Positions 2,438 through 63,150 of a stretch of DNA of 64,000 nucleotides are shown here, in pieces. Positions within the stretch are counted from its first letter, which is position 1. Every line of letters begins with the position of its first letter. Below the pieces are notes generated by a model. It saw only the letters and a list, made by a program, of their open reading frames with translations, did no database searches and had not been told where the DNA came from. The DNA is from Candidatus Latescibacterota bacterium. GTDB taxonomy: Bacteria > Latescibacterota > UBA2968 > UBA8231. The stretch spans positions 2,536,936-2,600,935 of the forward strand of contig CBDCNM010000002.1 of NCBI GenBank assembly GCA_965219385.1, given 5' to 3'. The position numbers and the translations under genes were made by a program.

Positions 2438-2450
2438 GAATAAGTTTCTT

Positions 2451-9015: not shown

Positions 9016-9108
9016 CGTTTAGCGGGAGCAAAGAGAGGGACATATCCTGCAGACTGTCCCTCTCGACGGGCTATTTTGCCATCTACTGACGCTAGGGCTC
9101 ATTCCAGC

Positions 9109-9900: not shown

Positions 9901-9933
9901 GGCGGTTCTCCTGTCAAAAGCGGTCGTATGCCG

Positions 9934-10944: not shown

Positions 10945-10945
10945 C

Positions 10946-13561: not shown

Positions 13562-13599
13562 GATATCCCTCCCTGAGGTACAGCGAATTTGGATATTTT

Positions 13600-15357: not shown

Positions 15358-15366
15358 GCGTTCCTC

Positions 15367-15420
15367 CACTTGCGAAAAAGCTGATGACGCTCGCACTTGC
15401 GAAAAAGCTGATGACGCTCG
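15367..15420. repeat. perfect 27-bp tandem duplication
   Basis: cacttgcgaaaaagctgatgacgctcg x2, directly upstream of the SD of the 15357 gene. Confidence 0.95.
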
Positions 15421-15919
15421 CGACGCTGCACTTGCCCGATGGCACGGGTGCATGCTTTCAGTGCCTCCGTGTCCCGCTTGCCTAGAATTCGTTTGCCTTC
15501 TTCGATCTAGCTGCCCATCCGCAACAGCCGCTCTTTCTCGATCAGAGCCGTCCTCAGTACTTCATCGCTACCTGCCATGGATTCTCTCTTACCTTTCGCC
15601 GTCTTCGGTCCCGTGATCCTCTTTGGTCACTCCTATCCACCCACCCAGAGCCTCTGTGGCCTCCCTGCCCCTGAGATAGACATGTACATCCTGCGGCATA
15701 TGTGCATATAGCTTCTCTAACGAGCACGCGCTCTTCAGTTGGTGCCCCTTCCAAGCTCCAGCCGTTTCTTTCGTAGCTTTTCTTCTCCGGGTATTTGGTC
15801 TATCAGTGTCCGCCAGTGCCTCGGGGGTGTTCCGGCTTCGCCGATGAATTCAAAGCCTTCACCTGTCCAGCTAACCTGGCTTTGCTTGATCCCTTCAAAG
15901 CCAAAGTCCCGGCGCAACT

Positions 15920-16217
15920 CAAGCGTCTTCGAACTGCTGGGCGATCTCAATGCGGATAATGCGCACCGAGCCGTGGGCGAATGCCAGCTCGACCACGTGC
16001 CGCCGCCGAATTTATCCGCGTTGAGCACGGCATTGATATCCTTGCGCAAGGCGACCGGAAGGATCCGCCCGTCGGCCATCACCTCTACGGTCCCCAGGGG
16101 CAGGTCCCAGTCCTGCCAATCCCGCGCGGCATTGAACGAGATCCGCTCGCCCTGGACCGGATGCCCAGCCAGGACCATCAGGGCGACCAGGCCCTGTAAA
16201 CGGACTGGAAATTTCAT
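15920..16217 (-). pseudogene. truncated, internally deleted discoidin-FlgD family gene
   Basis: MKFPVR...ERISFNAARDWQDWDLPLGTVEV...RKDINAVLNADKFGGG matches the N-terminus of 51066/55019, then jumps frame to HVVELAF...IIRIEI and stops; followed by lower-GC sequence (~15480-15900). Confidence 0.8.
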
Positions 16218-16254
16218 GGCTTTACTTCCGTTTTTCTCGCGCTGCCCACACAGC

Positions 16255-18066
16255 TCAATAGGCCACGCCCACAATTCGCGTCCTCGTCTCCGAGCCGGTG
16301 TCCGTATCCACCGTCAGCCCCAGCAGGTAGAGTCCGGGCGGCACCAGCTGGCCGGACGCATCCCGCCCCTCCCAGGTGACCACCTGAGGGCCGTTGAGCG
16401 CATCAATCTGCTGCAACTGGTGCACGGGATTGCCCGCCAGGTCGTAGAGGATCAGTTCCACCGCTACCGGGTTGAGGGCCCGCAGCAGGATGTAGGAGAT
16501 GGCCAGATCGTCGTTGGCTCCGTCCCCGTTGGGGGTGAATACAGGTGGATCGGTCTGGAGCCCCAGGAGCAATTGGTTGCTCAGCTCGCCCTGGATCGAC
16601 AACCGGTCGCTGGCGCTGCCCGGCGAGGCGTTGCCGGGCACCACGTCCTGCCCCAGTTCGCCGCTGGCGCTGTCAAAGACCTTGCCGAAGAAAGTGGTGC
16701 CATAGACGGTGACCAGGGCGTCGAAGGCGATGCGCAGGGTCTGGCCCGAGGTCGCGACCCGGTCTCCAGTGAGCTGCACGGTCAGGCTGAGCTCGTCCTC
16801 GGCTTCCACCTCCTCAAAGGAGATGGCCACCCCGTCCAGTTCGACGGAGCGGAGCGCGGCCCGGAAAGGAGTCTGGATCTGCACGCGGTCAAAGCCCGGG
16901 TTGTCGGGACCGAACTCGGAGCGGATGTAGTAATCAAAGGTATGGGGCTGGCCCAGGACCACGGTGGCCGGACTGATCTCGGATACGGCCTCGGCGGCCA
17001 GAGCGGGGCTCGAGTGCTCAAAGGAGAAGGACTCCACGGCCGCACCCAGGCGGGCGTCCTGCGAGGAAAAGAAAAGGCGGAACTGGACGTACTGCCGGTT
17101 GCCCGGGGAGAGGAAATCGCCATTGAAATCCTCGTACGGGGCCGACCAGGGGCTCCACTCCTCCAAATTGTCCACGATATCGCCCTTGTCCGCTTGGAGC
17201 AGGTCTTCATATTCCTCCGCCGCTTCGGGCGAGCCCACGGGCAAGATCGGCTCCTGAGCCCGCCCCTCCCCCACAAAGAGATCGGACTTGCGGTAATAGA
17301 TGAGGGGATCGGGCACCGAACCCGAGCGGGTCTGCAGGACCACATGGGTCAGCGAGTCCAGGCGGACCGGCAGCTGGATGCGGCCGAAATTGGCCGGCTC
17401 CCCCAGGTCGATGACTTCGGAGGTGAATTGGCCAGTGGGCGCAAAACCATCCCCGAAGACTTCGGCCTCGATCAGGCTGAACTCCTGGGTGGAGCGGCTT
17501 ATGAGTCGAATGAAGCGCACAAACTGCAGCGGGATCTCCACGTCGATCTCGGGCTCGTCCTGCTCCAGGTTGGTCTTCACCAGATTGGTGTAGGCAACCG
17601 GGCGACCGTTGCGCAACTGGGCGGGGTCGCCGTCGTGGACGAAGAGTTCGTAGGCGCGCAGAAAGGCATCCTCGCCGCCCACGAAGCGAATGCGGTTGAT
17701 CGGCAGGATAGCGCCCAGATCAATCACCATGGAGGTGCCGTCGGGGCGGCGCTCCCGGGTCACCCGCCAGGAGGTTTCGAGGTTGTTGTCGATCAGCAGG
17801 AGGGTGAGGTTCTCCCGCGCCTGCGGCGATGAGATCTCCCCGCCGCGCCGCAGGATATCGGACAGGGCATTGCTGGCCGGATTCACAGTGGCCGGGATGA
17901 GCACATTGTCCGCGGTGGTCACTCCGTCGAGTGACCCAATGGACTCCCAGTTCTGGTCGCCGGTCCCCACCTTCCAGATATCGATGCCTGCCGCCGGTCC
18001 GCTCCAGGCGCACAGCAGGGCGGCCAGTCCCAGCAGGGTCTTGCCCGCTTTAGAAGATTTATTCAT
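16255..18066 (-). CDS. secreted discoidin(F5/8-like) + FlgD-Ig/'TPNGDG' C-terminal domain protein, 603 aa
   Basis: Signal peptide; LIDNNLETSW, IDLGA, WSPWS, RQYVQF; FTPNGDGAND...WEGRDASGQLVPPGLY...IVGVAY*; clear paralog of 13600-15357. Confidence 0.88.
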   Translation of the reverse strand: MNKSSKAGKTLLGLAALLCAWSGPAAGIDIWKVGTGDQNWESIGSLDGVTTADNVLIPATVNPASNALSDILRRGGEISSPQARENLTLLLIDNNLETSWRVTRERRPDGTSMVIDLGAILPINRIRFVGGEDAFLRAYELFVHDGDPAQLRNGRPVAYTNLVKTNLEQDEPEIDVEIPLQFVRFIRLISRSTQEFSLIEAEVFGDGFAPTGQFTSEVIDLGEPANFGRIQLPVRLDSLTHVVLQTRSGSVPDPLIYYRKSDLFVGEGRAQEPILPVGSPEAAEEYEDLLQADKGDIVDNLEEWSPWSAPYEDFNGDFLSPGNRQYVQFRLFFSSQDARLGAAVESFSFEHSSPALAAEAVSEISPATVVLGQPHTFDYYIRSEFGPDNPGFDRVQIQTPFRAALRSVELDGVAISFEEVEAEDELSLTVQLTGDRVATSGQTLRIAFDALVTVYGTTFFGKVFDSASGELGQDVVPGNASPGSASDRLSIQGELSNQLLLGLQTDPPVFTPNGDGANDDLAISYILLRALNPVAVELILYDLAGNPVHQLQQIDALNGPQVVTWEGRDASGQLVPPGLYLLGLTVDTDTGSETRTRIVGVAY

Positions 18067-18087
18067 CAGAAGTTATAATATAAGCAA

Positions 18088-18119
18088 AGAGGGGAGGGGA
18101 TTCCAATCCCCTCCCCTCT
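18088..18119 (-). terminator. intrinsic terminator / stabilising hairpin after the first operon gene
   Basis: Perfect inverted repeat agaggggaggggatt-cc-aatcccctcccctct followed on the minus strand by TTTGCTTATATT. Confidence 0.75.
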
Positions 18120-18167
18120 GCTGAACTTGCTTTGACAATCGGTCCTGTCAGCCCATATTGCGGGCGC

Positions 18168-19070
18168 TTAGAGCTCTTCATCCACCAGGGCTTTGAGCTG
18201 GCCCCAGGAGGTGGCCTCGACAGCCGTGACGGACTCATCAACCGGGTTGAGGAAGACGTCGGGCATGCCGCCCGTGTTCATGAACTGCTCGGCCATGCTG
18301 TACTGGCCCTGCCAGAACATGTTGGTCTCCTCGCCCGATTCGCCGTTGACATTGGTGCCCGGATCCGCATCGTCGACCGAGATAGACATGCCAATGGTCG
18401 ACTCGGGGGTCAGGATCCACTCGGTGCTGGCTTCGGGACCGCTGTTGACGGCGATCGGATCGAAGAGAATGGCGCTGAACTCGTAGTAGTACTCCTCGCC
18501 CTCACTAGCCTCCTCGGTTTGGACGAAGTCGCCCGAGTGGGTCCACCAGAAGTCCCGGTTGTCCAACCCGAAGTGGCCCAGCGCGGACTCGTACATCTGT
18601 ATCCGCGAGAACTCCTCGGAGAAGGTCAGGCACATCTGGTAGGCCGGCTGCAGATCATCTTCGGGGGGCGCCGAGACCGGACCACCGCCCCCGTTGTCCG
18701 GATCGAAGTGCACTTCAACGGCGTCGTCCCGGAACAAACAGCCGGGATTCTTGTCCACGATCAGCACGTCGTCGTGCACGTGCACCATGGCGTTGATCGT
18801 GTTGTTGCTCGGCTGCCAGCCGATGATCATGTCGATGAAGAGATCATCGGCGTCATCGGCCCCACCGATGAGGGCGTTCATGTCATCGATGGTGATCTCG
18901 AAGCTGCGGTCCACCCAGGCCCAGTCAGCGTTGTCAGCGTCGATGGTGGGCTGATTGCCGGCCGGGATGCCCACGGCAAAGTAGAGCGGCACTTCGGCCG
19001 GTTCCTGAGCCAGAGAGCTACCGACGGCTACGAGCATCAGACCCAGCATAAGGACCAGTATTTTGCGCAT
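18168..19070 (-). CDS. exported CBM9/DOMON-like sugar-binding protein with C-terminal SWGxxK tail, 300 aa
   Basis: AAGGAGG SD; signal peptide; PTIDAD..DW, VHVHDD, DAVEVHFDPD, YYYEFS, IGMSISVDDAD; ends TAVEATSWGQLKALVDEEL. Confidence 0.8.
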   Translation of the reverse strand: MRKILVLMLGLMLVAVGSSLAQEPAEVPLYFAVGIPAGNQPTIDADNADWAWVDRSFEITIDDMNALIGGADDADDLFIDMIIGWQPSNNTINAMVHVHDDVLIVDKNPGCLFRDDAVEVHFDPDNGGGGPVSAPPEDDLQPAYQMCLTFSEEFSRIQMYESALGHFGLDNRDFWWTHSGDFVQTEEASEGEEYYYEFSAILFDPIAVNSGPEASTEWILTPESTIGMSISVDDADPGTNVNGESGEETNMFWQGQYSMAEQFMNTGGMPDVFLNPVDESVTAVEATSWGQLKALVDEEL

Positions 19071-42467: not shown

Positions 42468-43175
42468 GTGAAGGGTGGATCTTTCACTGTGCTCTGTTCT
42501 GTCGTTTTGTGCGCTGCGCTAGCGCGAGTTGAAACAGAGTCTGCCCAGAGCGCTACCCCGAGCAGCGAAGAAATGGTATTCGTGGAGGACTTCGGCTTCC
42601 ACCTGGACAAGTGCGAGGTGACCAATGTGGCCTACGCCGATTTTCTCAGCGCGGAGGGCAACCAGAAGGAAGAAGGGGTATGGTGGTTGGAATTGACCAG
42701 CAAATACGCCCTCATTGACGAGCGGGACGGGCGCTTCGTCCCCCGGGAGGAATTCGCCCACCACCCGGTCGTCGAAGTTTCCTGGTACGGGGCCCGAGCC
42801 TACTGCCGGTGGGCCGGCAAGCGCCTGCCCACCGCAGCCGAGTGGATCCAGGCCTGCGCCGGGAAGGAGAGCCGTCGCTTTCCCTGGGGCGAACTATTCG
42901 AGCCGGGTCGGGCCAACATATACGGCGATAAGGACGGGTACCGCCGCACTGCGCCGGTGGGTAGTTTTCCCGCCGGCGCCAGTCCCTATGGCGCGCTGGA
43001 CATGGGCGGCAATGTCTGGGAGTGGACAGGCTCCGGGTCGGTAGAGCAGGCCCGTTTTCACGGCGGCTCCTGGGTCAACGGCCAGACCATGGCCCGCTGC
43101 GCGAACCAGACTGTCGTCATCGCCTCCCATTCCTATGTCAAAGGCAACAGCCTGGGATTCCGCTGCGCTCGGTGA
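42468..43175 (+). CDS. formylglycine-generating-enzyme (SUMF1/FGE-sulfatase) fold protein, 235 aa
   Basis: EVTN, HPVVEVSWYGA.AYC.W.GKRLPT.AEW, DMGGNVWEW, GGSW, LGFRCA; catalytic Cys pair of true FGE absent. Confidence 0.88.
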   Translation: MKGGSFTVLCSVVLCAALARVETESAQSATPSSEEMVFVEDFGFHLDKCEVTNVAYADFLSAEGNQKEEGVWWLELTSKYALIDERDGRFVPREEFAHHPVVEVSWYGARAYCRWAGKRLPTAAEWIQACAGKESRRFPWGELFEPGRANIYGDKDGYRRTAPVGSFPAGASPYGALDMGGNVWEWTGSGSVEQARFHGGSWVNGQTMARCANQTVVIASHSYVKGNSLGFRCAR

Positions 43176-43348
43176 TGGGTTGACCTAGTGCTGCGCGGCA
43201 GAAATAACTGCGGGGTTAGTCCGTCCGGGGGTGCCCGGCGGGCGCCTGGCCGGGGCCGGGCTGCGGGGCTCTCTTGGAAGGGGAGGCGTCCAGGCCTGCC
43301 TGGGGGAGGGGACGCCGGGTGGGCGGAGGGACGGCCGGTTTTGGCCAG

Positions 43349-44210
43349 GCGCCCGACCCGGATGATTCACCCGAAGACTGGTTCATAGAGATCGATCTGG
43401 GGCGGTCCGTGTCGCCCCGGCGCATAACCCTGGTCTTTGCCGAGGACGCCCCGCCTTTTGAGCTGTTCGATCTATCCTGTCCGGGGGCGAACCCCAGCTG
43501 GACCAGGTGGACAATCCAGCCGAAGGCTCCCTGGTCTACCGCATCCGCGAGCGCTTCAAGGAGAACGAGAAGCGCCGGGTGAGCTACGAACCCGGCGAGG
43601 GTTTCCAGTCGCCCTCGTCCCGCCGTTATCTGGAGCTGGACGTGCGCCTGATCAGCGACGCGCCGGATAGGGCGACCAGCCTGGATTGGATAGCGGTGGA
43701 GTTCACCCCGCCCCTGGCCACAAGGGCGGTTGGCGAGATCCATCCCATGGAGGTCAGGCCGGGAGAGCAGACCGAGTTTACCTATTTCCTGCGGCCCCAG
43801 GGGGTCAAGTCCGGTTTCGACCGCCTGGCGGTGGAGGCTTCCACCCCGGTGCGCTTCACCGAAGCCTACGTGAACGAGGAGAGCGTAGAGGTGCGGGTCG
43901 ATGCGCGCGAAACCGGCTTCCGGGCGACCTTTCCCCGGGCCATTCGCAGCAATCAATTGGTGGAGCTCCGCTTCGAGTCGGCGGACTTCCTCTAGTCCAC
44001 CCGCTTCGACCTGTTCCTCGAGGACAGCCGCCAGGACAGTATGGTGCGGCAGCAGGTGGATCCGAGGGACGCCAGCGAGCGGGTGGAGAGCAGCACCAAC
44101 GTGGTGCGACTACCGGTAGCCAACGACCTTTTCGCCAATTTCACCCTGGCCTCCCAGGTGCTCACGCCCAACGGCGACGGGGCCAACGACGACCTGAGGA
44201 TTGCCGTGGA
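43349..44210 (+). pseudogene. degraded discoidin-FlgD family gene
   Basis: APDPDDSPEDWFIEIDLG..., frameshift ~43475, in-frame deletion at SYEP|GEGFQSP (~43590), TAG at 43993, ends after LTPNGDGAND where it is fused to the next gene. Confidence 0.85.
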
Positions 44211-44235
44211 CGGTACCCCAAGGTGGACCAGGCTA

Positions 44236-45936
44236 TTGTGGCTTCGGTTCTTTCTTTTCCCCGCTTCTCACCTCGGTATAATACTTCTCGTCCCGCCTTT
44301 GTGGGGCCAGCCGCTTTTTGTCGATGCGACCGAAGAGGCTGGCCTGACGCTTGCCAACACCTTCGGCGGCGCAGATAAGCGCTACATCGTCGAATCCACC
44401 GGCAGCGGCGCAGCGTTTTTCGACGGCGACGACGACGGCGACCTGGACCTTTACATAGTGAACGGCTCCACCTTTGAGACCTATGCGAATAAGTCTGGCC
44501 CCGGCAACATGCTCTACCGAAACCAGGGAGATGGCTGGTTCGAGGAGGTGACGGGTGCCGGGGGTGCCAGCGACAGGGGCTGGGGCGGCGGCGTGGCAGT
44601 CGGCGACTTTGACAACGACGGGTACCGGGACCTCTACGTGACCAACTACGGCCCCAACGCGCTCTACCGCAACCGGGGAGACGGGACTTTCGCCCAGGCA
44701 AAGGCCGGGGTCACAGGAGCGGACTACAGCGTCAGCGCGGCGTTTTTCGACTACGACAGGGACGGCGACCTGGACCTCTACGTGGTCAACTATGTCGTCT
44801 TCGACCTGGGCGCGGTGCCGGCGGATGCTGCCGACGACGAGCCGTGCATCTACCTGGGAGGCATTCGGGTGTTCTGCGGTCCCCAGGGCATGGAAGGGGC
44901 AGGCGATGTTCTCTACCGCAACGACGGCGACGGGCTCTTCGCCGAGGTCACCCGGGATACCGGAGTGGAGGCGGCCGGCGACTACTACGGTCTGGGCGTG
45001 GTGCCGGCGGATTTCAACGACGACGGGTACATGGACCTTTTTGTGGCCAACGACCAGACCCCGAACGTGCTTTTCAAAAACAACGGCGACGGCCACTTCG
45101 CCGACGTGGCGCCTCTGGTCGGGGTGGCCTACAATGGCGACGGGCAGGAGGAGGCCAGCATGGGCGTGGACGCTGGCGACTACGACGGCGACGGGGACGT
45201 GGATTTCTACGTCAGCAATTTCTACCGCGAGAGCAATACCCTCTACCGCAACGACGGCGGAGACCGCTTCGCCGATGTCACGGAAACAGCCGGACTGGCT
45301 GCCCCTACCCTCGATTTCCTAGGCTGGGGCACCCAGTTCTTCGACTATGACAACGACGGAGACCTGGACCTTTTCGCGGCCAATGGCCACGTGTACCCCC
45401 AGGTCGAGGGGACCGGGGCGGATATCGCCTACGCCCAGTCCAACCAGCTCTTCGCCAACGCGGGGGAGGGACGGTTCGTCGAAGTGACGCATAAGGCCGG
45501 TCCGGGGATGCAAATTGTCAAGGCGAGCCGGGGAACCTGCATAGGGGATTACGACAACGACGGTGATATCGACGTTTTCGTGGTCGAGCTGAACGACGTT
45601 CCGACCCTGCTGCGCAACGACGGGGGCAACCAGCGGAACGGGCTGATGGTGCAGGTTGTGGGGGAAGGGAGTAATCGGGATGGGGTAGGCGCGAAGATTC
45701 GGGTGTCCGCCGAGTCCGGCTCTCAGTGGCGCACCGTAAACGGGGCTTCCGGTTATCTGGGCCACAGCGATATCCGCGCCCATTTCGGACTCGGGCAGGA
45801 GCGGCAGGTAGACGTCGAAATCACCTGGTCGGATGGGGAGAAGGAATGGATCCGGGGTATAGCGGCCAATAGATGGGTGATGGTCCGCCAGGGGCAAGGG
45901 TACGCGGTGCGGAATTTGCCGAAACATGCCCGATAA
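44236..45936 (+). CDS. CRTAC1/ASPIC-UnbV family FG-GAP protein, ~566 aa (start uncertain)
   Basis: Signal-like segment then FVDATEEAGL, DxDxDG repeats, GYLGHSD.RAHFGLG; upstream part of ORF 44041 belongs to the pseudogene. Confidence 0.85.
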   Translation: MWLRFFLFPASHLGIILLVPPLWGQPLFVDATEEAGLTLANTFGGADKRYIVESTGSGAAFFDGDDDGDLDLYIVNGSTFETYANKSGPGNMLYRNQGDGWFEEVTGAGGASDRGWGGGVAVGDFDNDGYRDLYVTNYGPNALYRNRGDGTFAQAKAGVTGADYSVSAAFFDYDRDGDLDLYVVNYVVFDLGAVPADAADDEPCIYLGGIRVFCGPQGMEGAGDVLYRNDGDGLFAEVTRDTGVEAAGDYYGLGVVPADFNDDGYMDLFVANDQTPNVLFKNNGDGHFADVAPLVGVAYNGDGQEEASMGVDAGDYDGDGDVDFYVSNFYRESNTLYRNDGGDRFADVTETAGLAAPTLDFLGWGTQFFDYDNDGDLDLFAANGHVYPQVEGTGADIAYAQSNQLFANAGEGRFVEVTHKAGPGMQIVKASRGTCIGDYDNDGDIDVFVVELNDVPTLLRNDGGNQRNGLMVQVVGEGSNRDGVGAKIRVSAESGSQWRTVNGASGYLGHSDIRAHFGLGQERQVDVEITWSDGEKEWIRGIAANRWVMVRQGQGYAVRNLPKHAR

Positions 45937-46232
45937 ACCAAAACCCGCCGAAACCCCGAAAGCATTGATAAAACCACAGTTTCCCGCCGTCAAGTCAAGG
46001 GCTTGTCGTATGGTGTTCCCATGGTTAGGCAAGATTCTATTGCGGTTCGTGCGTCAACCCAATCTACCGACTGTTTTAACCCATGACAGCTTCTCTTCTT
46101 CGCACTCATGCCACTGAGGCGGATCTGTTGATGCGACCCTTCCAAAACAGTAGTTTATTAACAACCATTCGCCAAGGTACTCACTCAGCGAAAAGCCCTC
46201 AGTCGAACCGGTTTCGTACGCCAGGGAGTAAA

Positions 46233-48538
46233 ATGCGTCCTGCTCACTCTCGCCTCGTCCTCGCCCTCCTCGGATGGATCGCCTCGGTGGCGCTCCCTTC
46301 TCCTCTGGCAGCCGAACGCATGCTCATCCGCACCGCCGAAGACTGGCAGACCTGGACCTTTTCCCCGGGTGCGCTCCACGTAGAAGACGGCCGTCTGCGT
46401 CCCATATTCAACCGCAAAAACATCAACGCCGCTCTGGGGGGATTCATCCGCGGGGTCGGCACCAACCCAGCGGCTGCCGCCGCCGTCATCGACGGCGACC
46501 GGCAGAGCGGCTGGGCCCCCGATCCCGCCGACCCGGTGGAAGACTGGTGGATCGAAGTCGACCTGGGACAGGTCCTGCCCGTGCAGCAGATTCGCTTCTA
46601 CTTCGACGCAGAAACCGAGCCCTTCTCTTTCCTCAAAGTATCCCTGTCCAACGGCGAGCGCTTCATCAACAACGTCGGCGTCCGCGTCGAGGGCACCCTG
46701 CTCTTCAACGCCAGCAAACGCTTCTCTTTCAACGAGGATCATATCCTCAGCATACCCCTCGAAGACGAGCCGGTGCAGGTCATCCGCCTCGAAGCCAGTC
46801 GCCGCGTGACCCATTCCGTTCTCACCGAAGTAGAGGTAGACGCCTTCGGCGACAATGTTGCCTTCGACCTGATAGAGCGCGGCGGCAGCGTCGAGGTCGA
46901 AGCCGCGATCGTGACCCTGGCCGGCAGCCCCGCCAATATGTTCGACGGCGACCTGGCCAGCGCCTGGTGGGTGAATCCGCTGGCCAAGGGCTCTACCGGC
47001 GGGGGCGAGACCTTCGGAGATTACCGCATCGACCTGGGTGCCAGTTACTGGATCGATTCCATCTGGATCATGGGCGATCCCATCGGCATTCCCCCCGGGC
47101 GCAGGCACATCTACGCCAATTTTCTGTCCTACCAGATATTGTTTTCGGACGGGTCGCTCGCCCCCGACGGCACCCTGGCCTGGGAAGAGCTGGTCTCGGT
47201 GCCCGCCGATACGAAAAACCTGTTCGCCATCCACAATTTTCAGCACCACTTTGCGCCCGTGGCAGCGCGCTACCTCCGCCTCTTCTATCCCACCAGTCAG
47301 GGAGGTCAGATCCTCGGCGGCGGTTTGGGTGAGTACGGGCACTGGGACGGACTGGGACTGGTCGGCGAATTCCAGATCTTCGGAGTGGGCCACCCACCGC
47401 GCGTCATCCTGCGCTCCCCGGTCATCGACCTGGGCGCAGACTGGAATATCACCTCCCTGGAGTGGCGGGCCGACACCCCGCCCGGGACCCGCCTCCTCTT
47501 CCGCAGCCGTAGCGGCAACGAGGTCGTGGAGAAGACACGCTACTTCGACAAAAAGGGCAAGAAAGTCACTCAGAGGCGCTGGGAAAAGTTGATCAAATCC
47601 TTTCGAGGACCGGTGGTGACCACGCCCGTCGCCGGCGCTGACTGGAGTACGTGGGGCAAAGCGTATACCTTAGCAGGTACGGATTTTCGCTCGCCCTCGC
47701 CCCGGCGCTATTTCCAGCTGGAAGCCGAATTCCTCTCCTCCGATCCCCTGGCAGCTGCCACTCTGGAGGAGTTGATCGTCAACTATTCCCGGCCGCTTGT
47801 CCGCCAGGTCGTGGGCGAGATTTTCCCCCACCAGGTAGAGCCGGGCATAAAACAGGATTTCTCCTATTTTCTGCGCCCTGAGTTCATCCGCGACAACCTC
47901 GGTTTTGACCAAGTGGCGCTGGAGTCCTCGGTGCCTATGGACTTCGCCCAGGTGCGGGTCAATGATCGGGTCATAGAAGTGAGCCACCAGCAGACCGACG
48001 CGGGATTCCGCCTGAAATTTCCCGCCCTCATGGACGCCGCCGAACTCCTCGAAATTCGCTTCGGCGCCACTATTTTCCAGAACCACACCCGCTTCCGGGC
48101 CTTCCTGGAGAAGGAGAGCGGCGACGGCACCCTGCGCCAGCGGGTGGATCCGGGCGATGCCGTTCCCGACCTGGAAGGCGCCTCAGACGTGGTCACCCTG
48201 CCGCTCAACCGCGCCCTTTTCGCCCACCTCGAGATTACCCCCGAGGTCTTCACACCCAACGGCGACGGCCGCAACGATGTCCTGCGGATCTCCTTCGACG
48301 TCCTCAAACTGCTCAGCGCCCGGCCCGTCCGCGCCTGGATCTACGAGCTGCAGGGCCGCAAGGTGCGCCAACTGGCGGACGAGGCCAGCCTCGCCAGCCA
48401 TCGCGAATTGCGCTGGGACGGACGGGACGAGCACGGCGAGCTCGTGCCTCCGGGGCTTTACCTCTTCCACCTCGAGATAAGCGGCGATGCCACCACACCA
48501 CCCAGAACGTCGTCCGCACCATAGGTCTGAGCTACTGA
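46233..48538 (+). CDS. secreted double-discoidin + FlgD-Ig protein with frameshifted extreme C-terminus
   Basis: ATG 46233 after GGGAG; two IDG/FDG..W..DLG units; FTPNGDGRND...WDGRD..GELVPPGLY; current stop 48524, family-type ending TQNVVRTIGLSY* (stop 48538) lies in another frame because of a CACCA duplication at 48491-48500. Confidence 0.8.
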
Positions 48539-48649: not shown

Positions 48650-51208
48650 GTGACTTTTGCCGTACCGGCCGGACCATCCCTAGCGACTCCTCCTAATCAG
48701 TAGACCACCCGCACCAGCCGGGTGAGCGTCTGATGACGGGCGTCTCCCTCCATCTCGATACGCAGGATATAATGACCCGGCGGCACCCGCCGGCCGCTCC
48801 CATCGCGACCGTCCCAGACAAACGCCTGCGGGCCGGCCATCCCTTCCTTTTCCTGCGCCCACACTCGCCGGCCCGAAAGGTCGAACAGGCGCAGCCGCAA
48901 GGGCCGGCCCTCCAGCACGTTGACCAGGTCCACCCCGACCACCAGCGCGTCGTTGTGGCCGTCGCCGTTGGGAGTGAGTACGCCGGACTGCACCGACAGG
49001 TTGGCAAAGAGGTCGTTACCCAGGGGCAGCCCCACGACGTTGGTGCTGCTCTCGACCTGGTCGGTCGCATCGCCCGCCTCCACCCGCTGCCGCACCGGCT
49101 CGGTTAGCGCGCTGTTTTCCAGGAAGGCGTCGAAGCGGGTGCCGTGGACATACACCGCCCCCTCGAAGCGCAGTTCGACCAGTTCGCCGGCGCGCACCGG
49201 GCGCGGGAACCGCACCTTGAAGTCGGGTTCCCGGGGTTCTATCTCCACGGCCACCGGCTCGCCGTCGAGCCGGGCTTGGACAAAGTGCAGCGGGGTCGAG
49301 GCTTCCACTGCCACGCGATCAAATCCCGCCGCCGTGGAGGCCGCCTGGAGAAAATAAGAGAACGCCTGCATCTTCCCTGGCTCCACCTGGATGGGAAAGA
49401 CCTCGCCGACGACCCCCTCGGCCAGGGGATCGGAAAAGTCCAGGCTCAGCCGCTCCAGCGCGGCGGCGGCCTGCCCATCTTCGGAGATCAGGCGTACTTC
49501 CAACTGGGCGTAGCGCCGCAGCGACGGCGACAGAAAGCCCTGGCCCGACGCCCAGTAGAGTCGGCTCCAGGGACTCCAGTCATCCCCCACACTGAAAGCG
49601 GTGTCGACGGGACCGCGGAAGCTGGGAATCAGCCGGTTCCACACCTTTTCGGTGACTTCCTTGCCGTTTTTGTCGCGAAAGATGTACTCTTCCCTGAGGG
49701 CGTTGCCGCTGCGGCTGCGGATTTCCAGGCGGGTACCTGCCGGCGTATCCCCCCGCCAGTTCAGAGCATTGACATTTTTCTGGCCCTCCATATCGAGGAT
49801 GGGCGAGCGCAGGCTGACCTGGCGCGGATAGCCTTCCCCGAAGACGAAAAGCTCTTCCGTAAGACCATCGGCATTGCAGGCAGCGATGGCTGTGCCTAGT
49901 CTGTCCCCGCCGCCCGCATCCTCGGCGCAGGTGGCATCCCAGATCTTCCACTGCACGCGGACGAACCGGGTGGCCTGAAGTGGGAAGAGATGGTCGACCA
50001 CTCCCTGCCGGCGGTTGGTGGTCGAGGGCCAGCCCGAAAAGTGCTTCTGCCAGCGCAGGGTGCCGTCGGGCGAAAACGAGCCGTCCGAGGTCAGGATCTC
50101 GTAGAAGTTGAAGTCGAAGAATTCGCGCAGCTGGAACCATGGCATGTTCGCGCGCCACGGGGCAGTGGAGACGATACTGGCCAGGCGTATCATATCCACC
50201 CCGTACACAGCCCCCAGATCGAGCGTGATATGGGCGAAAATATCGGCCGCGCCGCGCGGCACTACGACAGTATGCCAGAACGTGTTGAGATTACCGTCGA
50301 TCAGCCTGGAAGCACCGGCCAGGGGAATATTGTTGCCCTCACTACCTAAGTTGATATCCACCGTGCCACCCCGCTCCATGAGCCCCAGGGTCAGATTGTC
50401 CCCCCAGGCTTCCACCTCCACTTCCGTCAGTCGCGCTTCCGCATCGGCTCTGAGCACCTGCAGGCGCACGAACTGAACCATTGCCTCCCGTGGATCTTCC
50501 AGCTCAAAGAGGACGCGGTGCTGGTCGTTTTCCTTGAAGCGCTGCTCAACCCGGTAGACCAGCGGCGCATCCGGCAAGGGTACCAGGGCATTGTCCAGCG
50601 TCCGCTCTCCGTTTGACAGGAAGAGGTCGAAAATCTCGAATGGGGGGGCGTTCTCATCGAAGCGCAGGCGGATCTGCCGCACCAGCACGACGCGCCCCAG
50701 ATCCAGCTCAATCCACTTTTCCTCGGCTGGATCGTCGGGAACCGGGCGCCAGCCGGTCGTGCCGTCCCCGTCCATCACCCACGCTGCATCCCCCAGGTTG
50801 GAACCGGCACCGACAATGCCGCCGCCAAACTGGGTCGCATTGCGGACGGCGTTGATGTTCTTGCGCGCCGGCACCGGACGGATAACGCCTGCCCGGGTCA
50901 CTTCGACCGCGCCCAGCGGCAGCGCCCACTGCCGCCATTCTCTGGCGGTGTCGAAGCGCAACTGTTCGGCGCCCGATCCGGCCGCCAGCAAAAGCAGCAC
51001 CCCGGCACTCCGCAGGAGCACCGGTAGCATTTTCTGGCCAGAAGACCTGTCAGGTACATTCTTCAAGTGCCGTCCCTCCGGTAGCGATCAGCGGGTTTAT
51101 TTCAGATGCGACGGTCAACGCCCGTGGGGTTCATCGCACGCCCCATTGGCGACCCATCGGTCCTGCCTTCAATTTATTTTGCCGCCCCTGCTCTATCAAG
51201 TAAAATCT
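48650..51208. repeat. ~2.55-kb direct repeat, copy 1
   Basis: Aligns to 52606-55159 (offset 3956, then 3953 after a 3-nt indel); alternative-frame ORFs in the track are identical between copies outside four patches. Confidence 0.97.
48697..51066 (-). CDS. secreted double-discoidin(F5/8/CBM32-like) + FlgD-Ig protein, variant A, 789 aa
   Basis: GGAGGG SD before TTG; signal peptide; VMDGDGTTGW..ELDLG and LIDGNLNTFW..LDLG; LTPNGDGHND...WDGRDGSGRRVPPGHY...LVRVVY*. Confidence 0.9.
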   Translation of the reverse strand: MKNVPDRSSGQKMLPVLLRSAGVLLLLAAGSGAEQLRFDTAREWRQWALPLGAVEVTRAGVIRPVPARKNINAVRNATQFGGGIVGAGSNLGDAAWVMDGDGTTGWRPVPDDPAEEKWIELDLGRVVLVRQIRLRFDENAPPFEIFDLFLSNGERTLDNALVPLPDAPLVYRVEQRFKENDQHRVLFELEDPREAMVQFVRLQVLRADAEARLTEVEVEAWGDNLTLGLMERGGTVDINLGSEGNNIPLAGASRLIDGNLNTFWHTVVVPRGAADIFAHITLDLGAVYGVDMIRLASIVSTAPWRANMPWFQLREFFDFNFYEILTSDGSFSPDGTLRWQKHFSGWPSTTNRRQGVVDHLFPLQATRFVRVQWKIWDATCAEDAGGGDRLGTAIAACNADGLTEELFVFGEGYPRQVSLRSPILDMEGQKNVNALNWRGDTPAGTRLEIRSRSGNALREEYIFRDKNGKEVTEKVWNRLIPSFRGPVDTAFSVGDDWSPWSRLYWASGQGFLSPSLRRYAQLEVRLISEDGQAAAALERLSLDFSDPLAEGVVGEVFPIQVEPGKMQAFSYFLQAASTAAGFDRVAVEASTPLHFVQARLDGEPVAVEIEPREPDFKVRFPRPVRAGELVELRFEGAVYVHGTRFDAFLENSALTEPVRQRVEAGDATDQVESSTNVVGLPLGNDLFANLSVQSGVLTPNGDGHNDALVVGVDLVNVLEGRPLRLRLFDLSGRRVWAQEKEGMAGPQAFVWDGRDGSGRRVPPGHYILRIEMEGDARHQTLTRLVRVVY

Positions 51209-52606
51209 CCTCCGCTTCCTTGAGGAAGCGCGTGATCTCCGGAATATCGTCGTAGTCGGTGGACCAGAGGTAGGGCGTGTCGCCGTTGGCGGCTCGCACG
51301 CCCAGATCGGCACCCTTTTCCACCAGGAGGCGGACCATGTCCAGGTCCCCTTTTTCCACGGCTCTATGCAAGGCTGCCGTGCCCTCGTCCCACGACCCCC
51401 AGAAACCGGGCACGATGGCGTCGATATGCGCGCCCCGCTCCAGCAGGTACTCCACTGCTTCCCGGCCGCCTTTCCACACGGCGTAGATCAGGTCGTAGCG
51501 CACCCCGAGCCACTTGGGCTGCTCGGCTTGGGCTACAAGGTCCAGCACCCTCGTCGAATCCAGGGTGATGGCATTGGGATCGGCGCCCCGCTCCAGCAGC
51601 AACCGGGTTAATTCCACGATGTTGGCAGGCAGGGGCACTCGCTGGGGCTGTCCGGCCACGTGGTGCAGCAAGGTGGCACCGCGAAAGTGCGGGAATGGGT
51701 AATACTCGTCCAGATAGCCGTGTGCATGCACCACCTCGGGATGTTCCCCGAGCAATGCCTCCAACCCTTTGGCATCCCCTTTATCCAGCCTTTCCACCGC
51801 CGCGTAGAAAGCCGGGTGTTCCGCGTCGCGTCTCTCTTTCACCTGTACCTGGGGCGGCAGTTGCTCTCCTTCTCTGGGAAGGGTCAGGGCCACCAGCCCA
51901 TTCGGCCGTTCCTCTCCGTCACCCATGGGCACTACCACATATTGCCGACCGCCGGCCCTATACGAGATGGGCGCCGCGCTGACAGCGCCGGGCAAGGGAA
52001 CGCTGCCCACTTAACCGGATGACCGAAGGCATCGAGCGCGACGCTACATAGAGCATCTTCTTTCCAGGGTGGAAGGCCGCACCGGCCCAGTCCGCCTCAC
52101 CCAGAAAGCCGGGCAAAACGATTGTGCCCTTTTCCGATGGTGGGGTGTAGAGGGGACCGTACTCGTAGTCTTTGATGATGTGCAAAGCCTGCTGGCGCAG
52201 CTCGGGCGTGAAGTCGATCAGGTCGTCCAGTTGCAGCCCCTGGCGGTCAAAGGGCAGCGGCCAGGTCGGGAAGGGTTGGGTAGGGGCGGCCTTTTCCACC
52301 TTGGAGGCGGGCACGGGCAATTCCACTATGGGCCACACAGGATCGCCCGTCACCCGGTCAAACACAAAGCAGAATGCCTGCTTGGTCACCTGGACCACCG
52401 CCTTGATGGGCTTGCCTTCCACCCTCGATGTCCACCAGCACCGGGACCGCCGGCGGGTCGTAGTCCCACAACCCGTGATGGGCTATCTGGAAGTGCCACA
52501 CCCGCCGCCCAGTCTCGGCCTCCAGACAGACAATGCTGTCGCCGAAGAGATTGTCACCGGGCCGTTCGCCCCCGTAATAGTCATTGCTCGGCGTGCTCAC
52601 CGGCAG
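51174..52606 (-). pseudogene. fragmented PQQ-dependent dehydrogenase (Gcd-like) with C-terminal ankyrin repeats
   Basis: [52 protein letters not shown] spread over three frames; then GATLLH, LLERGADPN, ALHRAV..GDLDMVRLLVEKGAD; 5' half missing. Confidence 0.85.
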
Positions 52607-55159
52607 TGACTATTGCCGTACCGGCCGGACCATCCCTAGCGACTCCTCCTAATCAGTAGACCACCCGCACCAGCCGGGTGAGCGTCTGATGACGGGCGTC
52701 TCCCTCCATCTCGATACGCAGGATATAATGACCCGGCGGCACCCGCCGGCCGCTCCCATCGCGACCGTCCCAGACAAACGCCTGCGGGCCGGCCATCCCT
52801 TCCTTTTCCTGCGCCCACACTCGCCGGCCCGAAAGGTCGAACAGGCGCAGCCGCAAGGGCCGGCCCTCCAGCACGTTGACCAGGTCCACCCCGACCACCA
52901 GCGCGTCGTTGTGGCCGTCGCCGTTGGGAGTGAGTACGCCGGACTGCACCGACAGGTTGGCAAAGAGGTCGTTACCCAGGGGCAGCCCCACGACGTTGGT
53001 GCTGCTCTCGACCTGGTCGGTCGCATCGCCCGCCTCCACCCGCTGCCGCACCGGCTCGGTTAGCGCGCTGTTTTCCAGGAAGGCGTCGAAGCGGGTGCCG
53101 TGGACATACACCGCCCCCTCGAAGCGCAGTTCGACCAGTTCGCCGGCGCGCACCGGGCGCGGGAACCGCACCTTGAAGTCGGGTTCCCGGGGTTCTATCT
53201 CCACGGCCACCGGCTCGCCGTCGAGCCGGGCTTGGACAAAGTGCAGCGGGGTCGAGGCTTCCACTGCCACGCGATCAAATCCCGCCGCCGTGGAGGCCGC
53301 CTGGAGAAAATAAGAGAACGCCTGCATCTTCCCTGGCTCCACCTGGATGGGAAAGACCTCGCCGACGACCCCCTCGGCCAGGGGATCGGAAAAGTCCAGG
53401 CTCAGCCGCTCCAGCGCGGCGGCGGCCTGCCCATCTTCGGAGATCAGGCGTACTTCCAACTGGGCGTAGCGCCGCAGCGACGGCGACAGAAAGCCCTGGC
53501 CCGACGCCCAGTAGAGTCGGCTCCAGGGACTCCAGTCATCCCCCACACTGAAAGCGGTGTCGACGGGACCGCGGAAGCTGGGAATCAGCCGGTTCCACAC
53601 CTTTTCGGTGACTTCCTTGCCGTTTTTGTCGCGAAAGATGTACTCTTCCCTGAGGGCGTTGCCGCTGCGGCTGCGGATTTCCAGGCGGGTACCTGCCGGC
53701 GTATCCCCCCGCCAGTTCAGAGCATTGACATTTTTCTGGCCCTCCATATCGAGGATGGGCGAGCGCAGGCTGACCTGGCGCGGATAGCCTTCCCCGAAGA
53801 CGAAAAGCTCTTCCGTAAGACCATCGGCATTGCAGGCAGCGATGGCGACGCCGAACGGGTCGTCGGCCACAGCCTCGGCGCAGGTGACATCCCAGATCTT
53901 CCACTGCACGCGGACGAACCGGGTGGCCTGAAGTGGGAAGAGATGGTCGACCACTCCCTGCCGGCGGTTGGTGGTCGAGGGCCAGCCCGAAAAGTGCTTC
54001 TGCCAGCGCAGGGTGCCGTCGGGCGAAAACGAGCCGTCCGAGGTCAGGATCTCGTAGAAGTTGAAGTCGAAGAATTCGTGCGTCCAGAACCATGGCATGT
54101 TCGCGCGCCACGGGGCAGTGGAGACGATACTGGCCAGGCGTATCATATCCACCCCGTACACAGCCCCCAGATCGAGCGTGATATGGGCGAAAATATCGGC
54201 CGCGCCGCGCGGCCGAACGAGAGTATGCCAGAACGTGTTAAGATTACCGTCGATCAGCCTGGAAGCACCGGCCAGGGGAAGATCGTGGCTCTCACTGCCT
54301 AAGTTGATATCCACCGTGCCACCCCGCTCCATGAGCCCCAGGGTCAGATTGTCCCCCCAGGCTTCCACCTCCACTTCCGTCAGTCGCGCTTCCGCATCGG
54401 CTCTGAGCACCTGCAGGCGCACGAACTGAACCATTGCCTCCCGTGGATCTTCCAGCTCAAAGAGGACGCGGTGCTGGTCGTTTTCCTTGAAGCGCTGCTC
54501 AACCCGGTAGACCAGCGGCGCATCCGGCAAGGGTACCAGGGCATTGTCCAGCGTCCGCTCTCCGTTTGACAGGAAGAGGTCGAAAATCTCGAATGGGGGG
54601 GCGTTCTCATCGAAGCGCAGGCGGATCTGCCGCACCAGCACGACGCGCCCCAGATCCAGCTCAATCCACTTTTCCTCGGCTGGATCGTCGGGAACCGGGC
54701 GCCAGCCGGTCGTGCCGTCCCCGTCCATCACCCACGCTGCATCCCCCAGGTTGGAACCGGCACCGACAATGCCGCCGCCAAACTGGGTCGCATTGCGGAC
54801 GGCGTTGATGTTCTTGCGCGCCGGCACCGGACGGATAACGCCTGCCCGGGTCACTTCGACCGCGCCCAGCGGCAGCGCCCACTGCCGCCATTCTCTGGCG
54901 GTGTCGAAGCGCAACTGTTCGGCGCCCGATCCGGCCGCCAGCAAAAGCAACACCCCGGCACTCCGCAGGAGCACCGGTAGCATTTTCTGGCCAGAAGACC
55001 TGTCAGGTACATTCTTCAAGTGCCATCCCTACGGTAGCGATCAGCGGGTTTATTTCAGATCGACGATGAACGCCCGTGGGCTTCATCGCACGCCCATTGG
55101 CGACCCATCGGTCCTACCTTCAATATACTTTGCCGCCCCTGCTCCATCCAGTAAAATCT
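52606..55159. repeat. ~2.55-kb direct repeat, copy 2
   Basis: See copy 1; includes the SD/ATG of a downstream gene stub (MVRPVRQ) and the 3' tip of the ankyrin ORF upstream. Confidence 0.97.
52653..55019 (-). CDS. secreted double-discoidin + FlgD-Ig protein, variant B, 788 aa
   Basis: Identical to variant A except ~17 substitutions and a 1-aa indel, all within the second discoidin-like domain. Confidence 0.9.
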   Translation of the reverse strand: MKNVPDRSSGQKMLPVLLRSAGVLLLLAAGSGAEQLRFDTAREWRQWALPLGAVEVTRAGVIRPVPARKNINAVRNATQFGGGIVGAGSNLGDAAWVMDGDGTTGWRPVPDDPAEEKWIELDLGRVVLVRQIRLRFDENAPPFEIFDLFLSNGERTLDNALVPLPDAPLVYRVEQRFKENDQHRVLFELEDPREAMVQFVRLQVLRADAEARLTEVEVEAWGDNLTLGLMERGGTVDINLGSESHDLPLAGASRLIDGNLNTFWHTLVRPRGAADIFAHITLDLGAVYGVDMIRLASIVSTAPWRANMPWFWTHEFFDFNFYEILTSDGSFSPDGTLRWQKHFSGWPSTTNRRQGVVDHLFPLQATRFVRVQWKIWDVTCAEAVADDPFGVAIAACNADGLTEELFVFGEGYPRQVSLRSPILDMEGQKNVNALNWRGDTPAGTRLEIRSRSGNALREEYIFRDKNGKEVTEKVWNRLIPSFRGPVDTAFSVGDDWSPWSRLYWASGQGFLSPSLRRYAQLEVRLISEDGQAAAALERLSLDFSDPLAEGVVGEVFPIQVEPGKMQAFSYFLQAASTAAGFDRVAVEASTPLHFVQARLDGEPVAVEIEPREPDFKVRFPRPVRAGELVELRFEGAVYVHGTRFDAFLENSALTEPVRQRVEAGDATDQVESSTNVVGLPLGNDLFANLSVQSGVLTPNGDGHNDALVVGVDLVNVLEGRPLRLRLFDLSGRRVWAQEKEGMAGPQAFVWDGRDGSGRRVPPGHYILRIEMEGDARHQTLTRLVRVVY

Positions 55160-55574
55160 GCTGACGGGAAAAATCCTGAAACCGCCTCTATATAATGACC
55201 TGCCAATCCGTCTTTGGTGGTGTAGTCGACAAACTCATTTCTATTTTTCAAAGTTGATACTGCAATTCCCTTCTCTGTCGACCTGGATCAATGTACTTGT
55301 TTACCGGGTTGACAGTAAAATCCAGGATCTGCTGGCCGCAGAAGATCCGCAGAAACAGTTCGAGCAGGTGGTCCAATTGCTCGAAAAGCATGCCACCACC
55401 CTGCGACCGTCTTCAAAGCACATGGTGGGCCGGGATCTGGGACGTTTGGAGTCCACGCCGGGGCTAAAATACAGAGCTACCGGTTGACAAAAGGAGGAGC
55501 AAAACGGACACATCGCCTTTGTCAAGAACAAAAAATTTGATCATCGAGTTTATAATTCCTATACTTTCCACGGG

Positions 55575-61829: not shown

Positions 61830-61992
61830 TATTCTATATACAACCGATTCGATTGCCAGGAAAAAACATGGCCGACGAGCCATCAGCTTATTCCGGCTTG
61901 GTTTAGATCGGTTACAGCAGCTTATCTGCAATTCTCAGCACCGACCTAAAGAGAGCCGACAGGCGGTGCGGATTTTACTTTCGTGTACTTAG
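61830..61992 (+). mobile_element. IS4-family transposase 3' fragment
   Basis: KKHGRRAISLFRLGLDRLQQL...LLSCT* ending TGTACTTAG. Confidence 0.65.
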
Positions 61993-62097
61993 GGTCGCCC
62001 AAAAAGTGGGTACTTCGTACACCCATGATGGCCGAAGGGCTGACGGATCATGTATGGACGTTGGAGGAACTCCTTTCGTTTCGGGTGCCACCAAGGC
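61993..62097 (+). mobile_element. IS1-like transposase 3' fragment
   Basis: RTPMMAEGLTDHVWTLEELLSFRVPP. Confidence 0.65.
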
Positions 62098-62815
62098 ACC
62101 TGTGGTACAACCTCTTGGTCTCGGACGGGTCCAGGGCGCCGGATGGCTCGCTGAGCTGGGAGCTTCTGGGCGAACTCCCCTCGAGCCGCCGCAACCTCCA
62201 GGGCATCGTCCACTTTGAGGAGCGCTTCCCGCTGCGCAAAGTGCGCCACGGGCGCCTGGTCTTCCCCATGACCGAAGGCCTCCAGGCCTTCGACGGCCGC
62301 ATCGGCACCACGGCCGAGTGGCAGTTCTTCGGCGCGGGCTACCCGGCCGGGGTCGTGGTACGCTCGCCGCTGTACGACCTAGAGAGCGTCCAACACGTCT
62401 CGTCGATCAGCTGGACAGCCGACGAGTCGCCCTCTACCCTGGTCGAGCTCCGCAGCCGCACCGGCAATCTCCTCGACGAGGAATACGTCTACTACGACAA
62501 AAACGGCAAACAGGTCACCGAGAAGAAATACAACAAGTTCATCCCCAATTTCCGGGGCCGCATCGACACCACGCGCACGCCCGGCGCCGACTGGAGCAAC
62601 TGGAGCCGGGCCTACGACGCACCCGGCCAGGCGCCCGGCCCCCGGCGCTACCTGCAACTGGAGGCGCACTTCCGCTCCGAAGACCCCTTCGACACCGCCG
62701 TCCTCGACGATATCGTCCTCGAATTCAACAATCCCCTGGCCCAGGAGACCCGCGCCGAGATCTTTTCCGCCGAAGCCCAGCCCGGCGAACAAAGCCTTTT
62801 CACGTACTACCTCCA
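62098..62815 (+). pseudogene. internal fragment of a discoidin-FlgD family gene
   Basis: LVSDGSRAPDGSLSW...ELRSRTGN..EEYVYYDKNGKQVTEKKYNKFIPNFRG..WSNWS..RRYLQLE aligns with 46233/51066; flanked by IS fragments. Confidence 0.85.
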
Positions 62816-63150
62816 CTTCCTCCTGGGGAGCATCGTCGATACCTTTCCCCAGTCGACGGCTTCCTCCGGCTCCCCCTCCCGGGTAAAGTGGTGTTCCTGC
62901 AGTATGCGATCCGCTTGCCGTTCCAGCTGCGCCAGAATCTGTTGTCCTTCTCCTTCGGCGGTATCGCACAAGGTGCGCGACGGCGTCCCTGCTTCGGCCG
63001 ATTGATGACGGATCCGGTTAATCAAGTCCGTCGTCTTGCGATACGAGTCTTCGACTACCCCATGCACCAGCGCCAACTCCTTGAAACCCCGCGTCCGATA
63101 CCATTCCTTGGCCTGCAACGGCGGAAACAACCACCGACTCGTCCGATGGC
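62815..63150 (-). mobile_element. probable transposase fragment (ISKra4/ISLre2-like)
   Basis: FPPLQAKEWYRTRGFKELAL...SYRKTTDLINRIRHQ...GTPSRTL. Confidence 0.45.

Follow-up and report, generated by a model that had tools for sequence, protein, structure and literature searches.

Within the 64-kb stretch of Candidatus Latescibacterota DNA analysed here and hereafter called the window, two nearly identical genes encoding secreted proteins lie in tandem on the reverse strand, and almost all that differs between them is gathered in four loops of one predicted binding domain. It appears likely that this pair stems from an old tandem duplication maintained under gene conversion, where the peaks of divergence in the loops correspond to a switch of specificity between paralogs of a secreted protein with two CBM32-like domains. 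The two genes are as follows:

Copy 1 gene: 48697-51066, reverse strand, 789 residues.
Copy 2 gene: 52653-55019, reverse strand, 788 residues, architecture as in copy 1.

Pairwise alignment of the two copies gives 29 substitutions and one 3-nt (one-codon) indel, where 28 of the substitutions and the indel fall inside codons 241-392 and the remaining one is a silent change in codon 24 (50997/54950). As such, the initial annotation, which was made from the sequence alone and counted by eye about 28 substitutions and a 3-nt indel within about 455 bp, plus a single silent change in the signal peptide, proved exact. The differing codons number 21, namely 17 that change the residue and four silent ones (codons 24, 241, 260, and 268), i.e., 17 against three within the region, the very figures first estimated. 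Substitutions at codon positions 1, 2, and 3 amount to 12/11/6, in agreement with the bias toward positions 1 and 2 originally reported. None of 100,000 random placements of the differences within domain 2 was equally tight.

The tandem layout of the two copies is real. Distinct junction contigs at both gene ends are present among the Logan contigs of the four runs examined, all four (three studies), and the depth of the genes in these contigs is about twice that of their flanks, depth being a weak measure; both proteins are also encoded in a second assembly. That two strain alleles had been assembled in tandem from a single locus, a caution already voiced in the initial annotation, might have been feared of a metagenome-derived genome (94% complete, with 3.4% contamination), but given the junction contigs and the second assembly the copies are therefore not two alleles set side by side; the unique 1.4-kb spacer between them also contradicts such an artefact, which is almost certainly not the explanation.

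All residue differences belong to the second of the two CBM32-like domains, where they form four patches (numbering of copy 1):

Domain 2 (residues 225-412): 49831-50394, reverse strand, predicted CBM32 fold, with all 17 residue differences; copy 2 counterpart at 53787-54347.
Loop 1 patch (residues 244-247): 50328-50344, reverse strand, GNNI; SHDL in copy 2 at 54281-54297; copy-specific in both strains.
Loop 2 patch (residues 267-269): 50261-50268, reverse strand, VVV; LVR in copy 2 at 54214-54221.
Loop 3 patch (residues 307 and 312-314): 50124-50154, reverse strand, QLR at 312-314; WTH in copy 2 at 54079-54086; in the second strain, moved from one copy to the other by conversion.
Loop 4 patch (residues 378-395): 49882-49934, reverse strand, between Cys380 and Cys397; copy 2 at 53847-53887.

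The alignment confirms the four patches where they had been located beforehand, the longest of them lying, as first noticed, between two conserved cysteines, Cys380 and Cys397, which are invariant in 65 of the 65 aligned sequences. The loops, defined from the secondary structure of the model, make up 75 of the 188 residues of domain 2 and contain all 17 changes, a placement which, counted as four events, has a probability of 0.025 within domain 2 and of 1e-4 over the mature protein. The best matches of the domain-2 model are CBM32 modules (Foldseek E about 1e-9), and the DG motif and the WH pair anchor an alignment of domain 2 with the CBM32 of 2J1A. At its apex, CpGH31 CBM32-1 has one contiguous site built from four stretches of backbone, namely the loop 15-19 residues before the binding His, the loop that carries this His, the one leading into the next core strand, and the one preceding the last strand (PMC5291390). 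The four patches occupy the predicted equivalents of these four places, on one face by topology, the loop 2 patch being two to four residues past His265, the position of the CBM32 binding His and stacking aromatic. The constant scaffold proposed by the initial annotation, with variation set in loops matching a CBM32 binding apex, is thus upheld at the level of alignment and model. The canonical CBM32 galactose site is not found in domain 2, where His265 aligns, the residue at His+3 is Val, and neither Arg nor Asn stands at the aligned places. The fucose motif of F-type lectins, HX24RXDX4(R/K) (PMC5712786), is also missing from domain 2, His265+25 being Val290, and an F-type lectin identity was rejected on this ground; the F-type cation motif h2DGx is present as LIDGN at residues 255-259. 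With both the galactose residues (bar His265) and the fucose motif missing, the ligand would be bound otherwise than at a canonical galactose or fucose site.

The two genes, along with some of the DNA upstream of them, are kept identical by interlocus gene conversion, from which the four apex loops of domain 2 are exempt. This cause of the near-identity was not considered in the initial annotation and emerges from a second strain. At 90% identity, the proteins cluster into a group of five members, namely the two window proteins, one C-terminal fragment, and two second-strain proteins. Each of the second-strain copies keeps 15 of its own 17 loop residues together with its indel state, the versions of loop 1, loop 2, residue 314, and loop 4 staying copy-specific. 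E174K, E194G, N307S, and W312-T313 are common to both second-strain copies, and A395L is present in copy 1 only. Likewise, in the contigs of runs X4 and X5, common letters are found at both gene positions (50486/54439, 50490/54443, 50827/54780, and 50147-8/54100-1). Changes common to both paralogs are a very strong indicator of conversion, and local peaks resistant to conversion have been used to find selected sites (PMC3924837). The DNA around the genes is arranged as follows:

Upstream duplicated DNA of copy 1: 51067-51211, reverse strand, 145 nt; copy 2 counterpart at 55020-55162, 13 differences (9%) counted in the alignment.
Downstream duplicated DNA of copy 1: 48650-48696, reverse strand, 47 nt; copy 2 counterpart at 52606-52652, 1 difference.
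Unique spacer (about 1.4 kb): 51212-52605, reverse strand, 5'-truncated and frameshifted remnant of a PQQ dehydrogenase-ankyrin gene.

The duplicated upstream DNA takes in the final codons of the ankyrin gene, and the remnant in the spacer begins abruptly at the end of the repeat, which fits the breakpoint expected of a tandem duplication. In the strain type of runs X4 and X5, this upstream DNA has been partly made identical between the copies, as judged from contig ends among the rows listed, where 30 nt that differ in the window strain are the same in both. Outside domain 2, silent change amounts to 1 in 468 synonymous sites versus 9% divergence upstream; together with the strain-specific changes present in both copies, this difference therefore indicates a duplication older than the identity of the scaffold suggests. 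If the duplication were very recent and rapid positive selection had acted since, with no conversion involved, scaffold identity near 100% would be accounted for, but this reading is contradicted by those same shared changes and by the 9% divergence of the upstream repeat, and is highly improbable. Three other near-identical pairs of the family in this genome exhibit patchy conversion, their differences not being restricted to loops. At C2 503238-512368 and C1 741377-745303, further tandem pairs of the wider family, also near-identical, alternate between long identical tracts and diverged ones, as would fit a genome where conversion is common.

Respective to selection, the ratio of nonsynonymous to synonymous differences per site (pN/pS, Nei-Gojobori) lies between 0.8 and 1.1 for domain 2 as a whole and between 1.5 and 1.7 for the patches (p 0.13-0.19), neither being significantly above 1. 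The strong diversifying selection invoked by the initial annotation is thus not borne out, the more so as the multi-base changes may partly be single template-switch events (see below). Comparisons between classes of changes are more telling: codons changing the residue and silent codons stand at 16:4 here versus 180:186 in four other near-identical pairs of the family (p = 0.01), and at 15:1 for copy-fixed changes versus 6:5 for strain-level ones (p = 0.027; a hand tally among the rows listed). Among 33 ortholog pairs from near-complete genomes of a related genus, the loops diverge as the core does (0.043 vs 0.040), whereas five paralog pairs of that genus, derived from one ancestral duplication, give 0.32 for loops vs 0.16 for core. 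In an independent tandem pair (genome G010, C91:33000-43000; 91% identical), residue changes affect 8 of 24 loop-4 codons versus 59 of 774 codons elsewhere (p = 4e-4). From these alignments, the loops behave as paralog-specific determinants that would have been switched after duplication and then conserved, rather than as sites of constant turnover. The term hypervariable originally applied to them does not suit haplotypes that are copy-specific, largely stable between two strains, and conserved among orthologs. As to the excess of loop variation that homologs were expected to display, the ortholog pairs lack it and 31 close pairs from a protein search exhibit it for loop 4 alone (0.17 vs 0.066), not for loops 1-3, a result which counts against a switch followed by conservation. 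Since loop 4 is elevated in these close pairs and three of the five strain-level events hit loops, i.e., about 10% of the protein (p = 0.008), the pair still seems to be changing in this species. Other near-identical pairs were sought among part of the paralogs of each genome; no two proteins of one genome exceeded 91% identity (G010) in a set of 83 from 16 genomes, or 78% in a set of 81 from 16 near-complete genomes.

Several of the loop changes involve adjacent bases, and for three of them an origin by template switching, in one direction or the other, is strongly suggested by the inverted repeats that they complete. Six clusters of adjacent-base changes, a set defined after seeing the data, were considered (codons 268-269, 307, 312-313, 389-390, 392, and 395). 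The triple substitution in codons 268-269 makes the following element, of which copy 1 holds a quasi-palindrome:

Perfect 10-bp inverted repeat of copy 2: 54196-54216, reverse strand.

In the second strain, S307 together with W312-T313-R314 makes another perfect 10-bp inverted repeat, and a single switch would account for either the two changes at codon 307 or all four at codons 312-313. A395L, in copy 1 of that strain, perfects an 8-bp inverted repeat with codons 381-384, and a 7-bp cross-allele match joins codons 383-384 and 392. For the two 10-bp repeats and the 8-bp one, the observed allele gives the longest inverted repeat among the alternatives, i.e., 1 of 27 for codons 268-269, 1 of 9 for codon 307 or 1 of 81 for codons 312-313, and 1 of 27 for codon 395. 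By chance, a cluster attains 10 bp in 0.1-0.4% of cases and 8 bp in 4-8%, and repeats of 10 bp accompany two of the six loop clusters versus 3 of 117 clusters elsewhere in the genome (p = 0.02), those of 8 bp three of six versus 7 of 117 (p = 0.007). This genome-wide test served as a background fraction only, and by itself revealed no surplus of template-switch clusters across the genome (3 observed versus 3.8 expected, under a conservative null). Loop DNA across 30 genes of the family is not enriched in hairpins, and the repeats are therefore not read as evolved hypermutable sites. Template switching is reported to make multi-base coding changes, to mimic positive selection, for which it was mistaken in 70% of the cases tested in yeast, and to permit jumps between fitness peaks (PMC8604942); a template-switch model has also been proposed for bacterial inverted repeats (PMC5941160).

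A dedicated source of variation was looked for in this assembly by blastn and wildcard scans, and beyond the two copies themselves no template or cassette was found for any patch, the next best stretches having 12-23 mismatches in 40-60 nt; among 75 other genomes of the family, the best DNA match was 66% over the gene. The search for a reverse transcriptase with a template repeat, as advised by the initial annotation, was rewarded elsewhere in the genome. A reverse transcriptase of the type found in diversity-generating retroelements (DGRs), 303 residues long and seemingly 5'-shortened, is encoded at C1 ~868.2-869.1 kb. The AAC-rich template repeat matches three sites, namely itself and two C-termini of FGE-sulfatase (sulfatase-modifying-factor) type, and does not match the gene pair. 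Throughout codons 241-395, the two copies agree at five AAC/AAT codons and at 63 adenines in codon positions 1 and 2. With no matching template and its adenines untouched, the gene pair was rejected as a DGR target. A search of the 94% complete assembly with profile PF22296 found no Avd. Two further reverse transcriptases (641 and 593 residues, with long C-terminal extensions) depart from DGR enzymes in length, and nothing connects them with the locus. As for the DGR remnant itself (C1 ~868.2-870.5 kb), the adjacent FGE-sulfatase-type target differs at 21 adenine sites and 13 others, and a weaker second target is located at C2:3702516.

Taken together, a gene for a secreted binding protein with two CBM32-like domains would have been duplicated in tandem long ago; interlocus conversion homogenises the scaffold while the four apex loops of domain 2 escape, presumably as each copy binds a different ligand and conversions that erase the difference are selected against. 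In all likelihood, polymerase template switching at short quasi-palindromes produced several of the loop changes, two to four bases in one step, and conversion would then carry loop pieces between copies, as for W312-T313. Exported by a type IX-like route, both proteins may be part of a fixed, paralog-encoded surface repertoire for glycans or other polymers, and a dedicated diversifying enzyme would not be needed. The 17 residues that differ probably set what each protein binds. Several points weigh against this account. With pN/pS not significantly above 1, adaptive divergence is deduced from position and persistence. The one-face placement depends on topology and on the CBM32 alignment, loop pLDDT being modest (56-74 in blocks over loops 1, 3, and 4). 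Protein-level data cover two strains only, where the location of second-strain P0001 and P0122 on one chromosome is deduced from a shared assembly figure (5.73-Mb longest contig). Logan contigs pop bubbles, so that run contigs do not phase alleles, and the letters were taken from the rows listed. The clusters submitted to the inverted-repeat test were chosen with the data in view, and a local template was sought for codons 389-390, loop 1, and several single changes, and none was found.

The divergence might instead be nearly neutral, with tolerant loops, mutations by template switching, and mismatch density alone blocking conversion, in which case both copies could bind the same ligand. Recombination between diverged sequences is blocked by mismatch repair, and MutS is present in the genome. 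A pN/pS of about 1 in domain 2 points the same way, as does the yeast precedent (PMC8604942), but the 33 ortholog pairs, where loops and core are equally conserved, indicate that the loops are not normally tolerant, and isolated single changes, i.e., four at first codon positions in loop 1 and A378V, persist in both strains whereas the silent ones at codons 241 and 260 do not; all in all this explanation is unlikely. The loop pieces could also have been imported by short-tract recombination from an outside donor, be it a third paralog, other strains, or a silent cassette. Triple and double changes separate two strains otherwise a handful of bases apart, and a 94% complete assembly leaves some room for a donor; this assembly and the 75 other genomes nevertheless offer no candidate, diverged imported DNA should bring more silent change, and three of the clusters have a local template, all of which makes import rather improbable.

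A programmed diversifier, whether a DGR or some other enzyme, rewriting the four loops into an antibody-like repertoire within the population would agree with the preference for codon positions 1 and 2, with the DGR-type reverse transcriptase and template repeat of the genome, and with the three of five strain-level events in loops. Against it stand a template repeat matching sulfatase-modifying-factor C-termini only, the adenines and AAC/AAT codons unchanged between copies, haplotypes persisting across strains, the lack of a PF22296 hit for Avd, loop DNA that is not hairpin-rich, and the four runs, whose contigs, which drop rare variants, exhibit alleles of two strain types only; such a diversifier is very unlikely. 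A bolder reading, for which the chances are slim, is that of a diversity generator working with no reverse transcriptase, where quasi-palindromic loops would switch template at a high rate and conversion between the twins would reset the scaffold and shuffle loop pieces, so that populations hold many combinations. The three template-switch events in three loops and the new loop alleles between very close strains fit it, while stable haplotypes and the lack of family-wide hairpin enrichment speak against it. Compared with these alternatives, paralogs kept alike by conversion and divergent at their loops remain the preferred explanation, and the antibody-like picture of the initial annotation survives in its constant scaffold, four apex loops, and paralog repertoire (23 matches in this genome), not in hypervariability or strong diversifying selection.

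Copy 1 is organised as a signal peptide (called by eye, with a helix at residues 14-29 in the model), two F5/8 type C (CBM32-like) domains (about residues 67-222 and 225-412), a beta-sandwich region, and a C-terminal FlgD/CHU_C module (residues 683-789). Pfam PF00754 (F5/8 type C) is above cut-off, with two stretches per protein. The mean pLDDT is 86.7 for the AlphaFold2 model of copy 1 and 89.5 for the domain-2 model of copy 2, and both models have CBM32 modules as their best matches. The C-terminal module scores 31.8 bits versus a cut-off of 27 for CHU_C in Pfam, is below the TIGR04131 cut-off, and, as modelled, superposes on the C-terminal domain (CTD) of PorU (Z 13.1, root-mean-square deviation 2.4, 99 aligned residues). 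Genes of the SprA_N and PorV families are over cut-off in this genome, i.e., a SprA-family gene (2036-residue frame) at C2 ~2.51 Mb and three PorV-family genes at 298 kb, 1.49 Mb, and 2.65 Mb. Type IX-like export of both proteins is thus plausible on the basis of the models and profiles; none of the 12 papers on type IX secretion that were listed names the phylum Latescibacterota. The family is multi-copy, with matches in 36 of the 36 same-family genomes sampled; of 19 near-complete relatives searched, 17 carry it, each with 1-16 close copies. Among the 120 homologs listed, two have a named taxon, both Ca. Latescibacterota, and the Atlas clusters of the family hold hypothetical proteins, mostly from Latescibacterota and Gemmatimonadota. 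A metagenome scan of 70 candidate stretches yielded 12 distant loci and no close alleles, and four sponge metatranscriptomes contain small shares only of the 64-kb stretch. No paper on this family or on this combination of mechanisms was found in a literature search covering few subscription journals, and the accessible part of PMC12993501 does not mention the family.

Next to the pair, an older paralog of convergent orientation shares its architecture:

Older convergent paralog: 46083-48524, forward strand, 813 residues, about 40% identical.

Elsewhere in the window, a broken paralog at 43170-44250 on the forward strand has a frameshift, a stop, and an internal deletion, whereby all of domain 2 is lost and domain 1 is fused to the C-terminal part, and a further paralog fragment at 61983-63005 (forward strand) is apparently interrupted by mobile-element sequence. 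Genome-wide, near-identical repeats the size of insertion sequences are very numerous (several families of 0.9-1.5 kb, with dozens of copies). On the reverse strand at 443-19070, an operon-like cluster comprises DUF6785/DUF6784 and a second unannotated membrane protein, an M28 peptidase-FtsX/MacB fusion, an 885-residue protein with no family match, and two F5/8C-CHU_C proteins, with peptidyl-prolyl isomerase-like genes nearby; it may be an uptake system fed by the binding proteins.

The pair is not an antibody-like diversity machine. Rather, it works like the divergence peaks of the human red/green opsins and of RHD/RHCE (PMC3924837), where paralogs are kept alike by conversion, lineage changes appear in both copies, and divergence survives only near functionally important sites; lineage changes in both paralogs, as well as local peaks at which a copy resembles its ortholog more than its paralog (15 of 17 loop residues), were found here too. 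The difference lies in a bacterial setting, four peaks of 3-18 codons on one predicted binding surface, and several one-step changes resembling template switches. It is not a DGR target either: as DGRs are generally defined, codon position 1-2 variation in a ligand-binding domain and a host carrying a DGR are shared, but here there is no template, adenines are not targeted, alleles are stable, and the target is not a C-terminal CLec/FGE fold. Nor is it an F-type lectin, although eel and oyster bindin isoforms (PMC5712786) have a related fold and vary in cleft loops, since here the fucose motif, splicing, and intron recombination are missing and two stable paralogs replace many isoforms. With the CBM32 modules of Clostridium perfringens CpGH31, GH84C, and GH89 and of the M. 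viridifaciens sialidase (PMC5291390), it shares the fold, the DG calcium motif, the position of the binding His, and four variable apex loops, whereas loops 3 and 4 of domain 2 are much longer, loop 4 holds a pair of Cys, and there is no stacking Trp/Tyr at His+3, in a free-standing secreted family with no catalytic module. The proteins resemble type IX secretion cargo (CHU_C/TIGR04131, PorU CTD) in the putative signal peptide, the C-terminal module over the CHU_C cut-off, the structural match to the PorU CTD, and the SprA and PorV homologs, whereas the module falls short of TIGR04131 and the host, going by the labels of homologs (Ca. Latescibacterota, Gemmatimonadota), would not belong to Bacteroidota. 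As in reported template-switch mutagenesis (PMC8604942, PMC5941160), multi-base changes perfect a short inverted repeat and hit several codon positions together; those reports describe events sporadic across genomes, whereas here three would have occurred in three binding loops of one domain. The pair thus provides a warning that clustered changes at codon positions 1 and 2 need not signal a DGR or strong positive selection, a compact bacterial case where template-switch mutation, gene conversion, and probable selection are legible in the same 450 bases, and a natural domain-swap experiment, in which 17 residues on an otherwise identical scaffold would point to what sets specificity in this uncharacterised family of secreted proteins.

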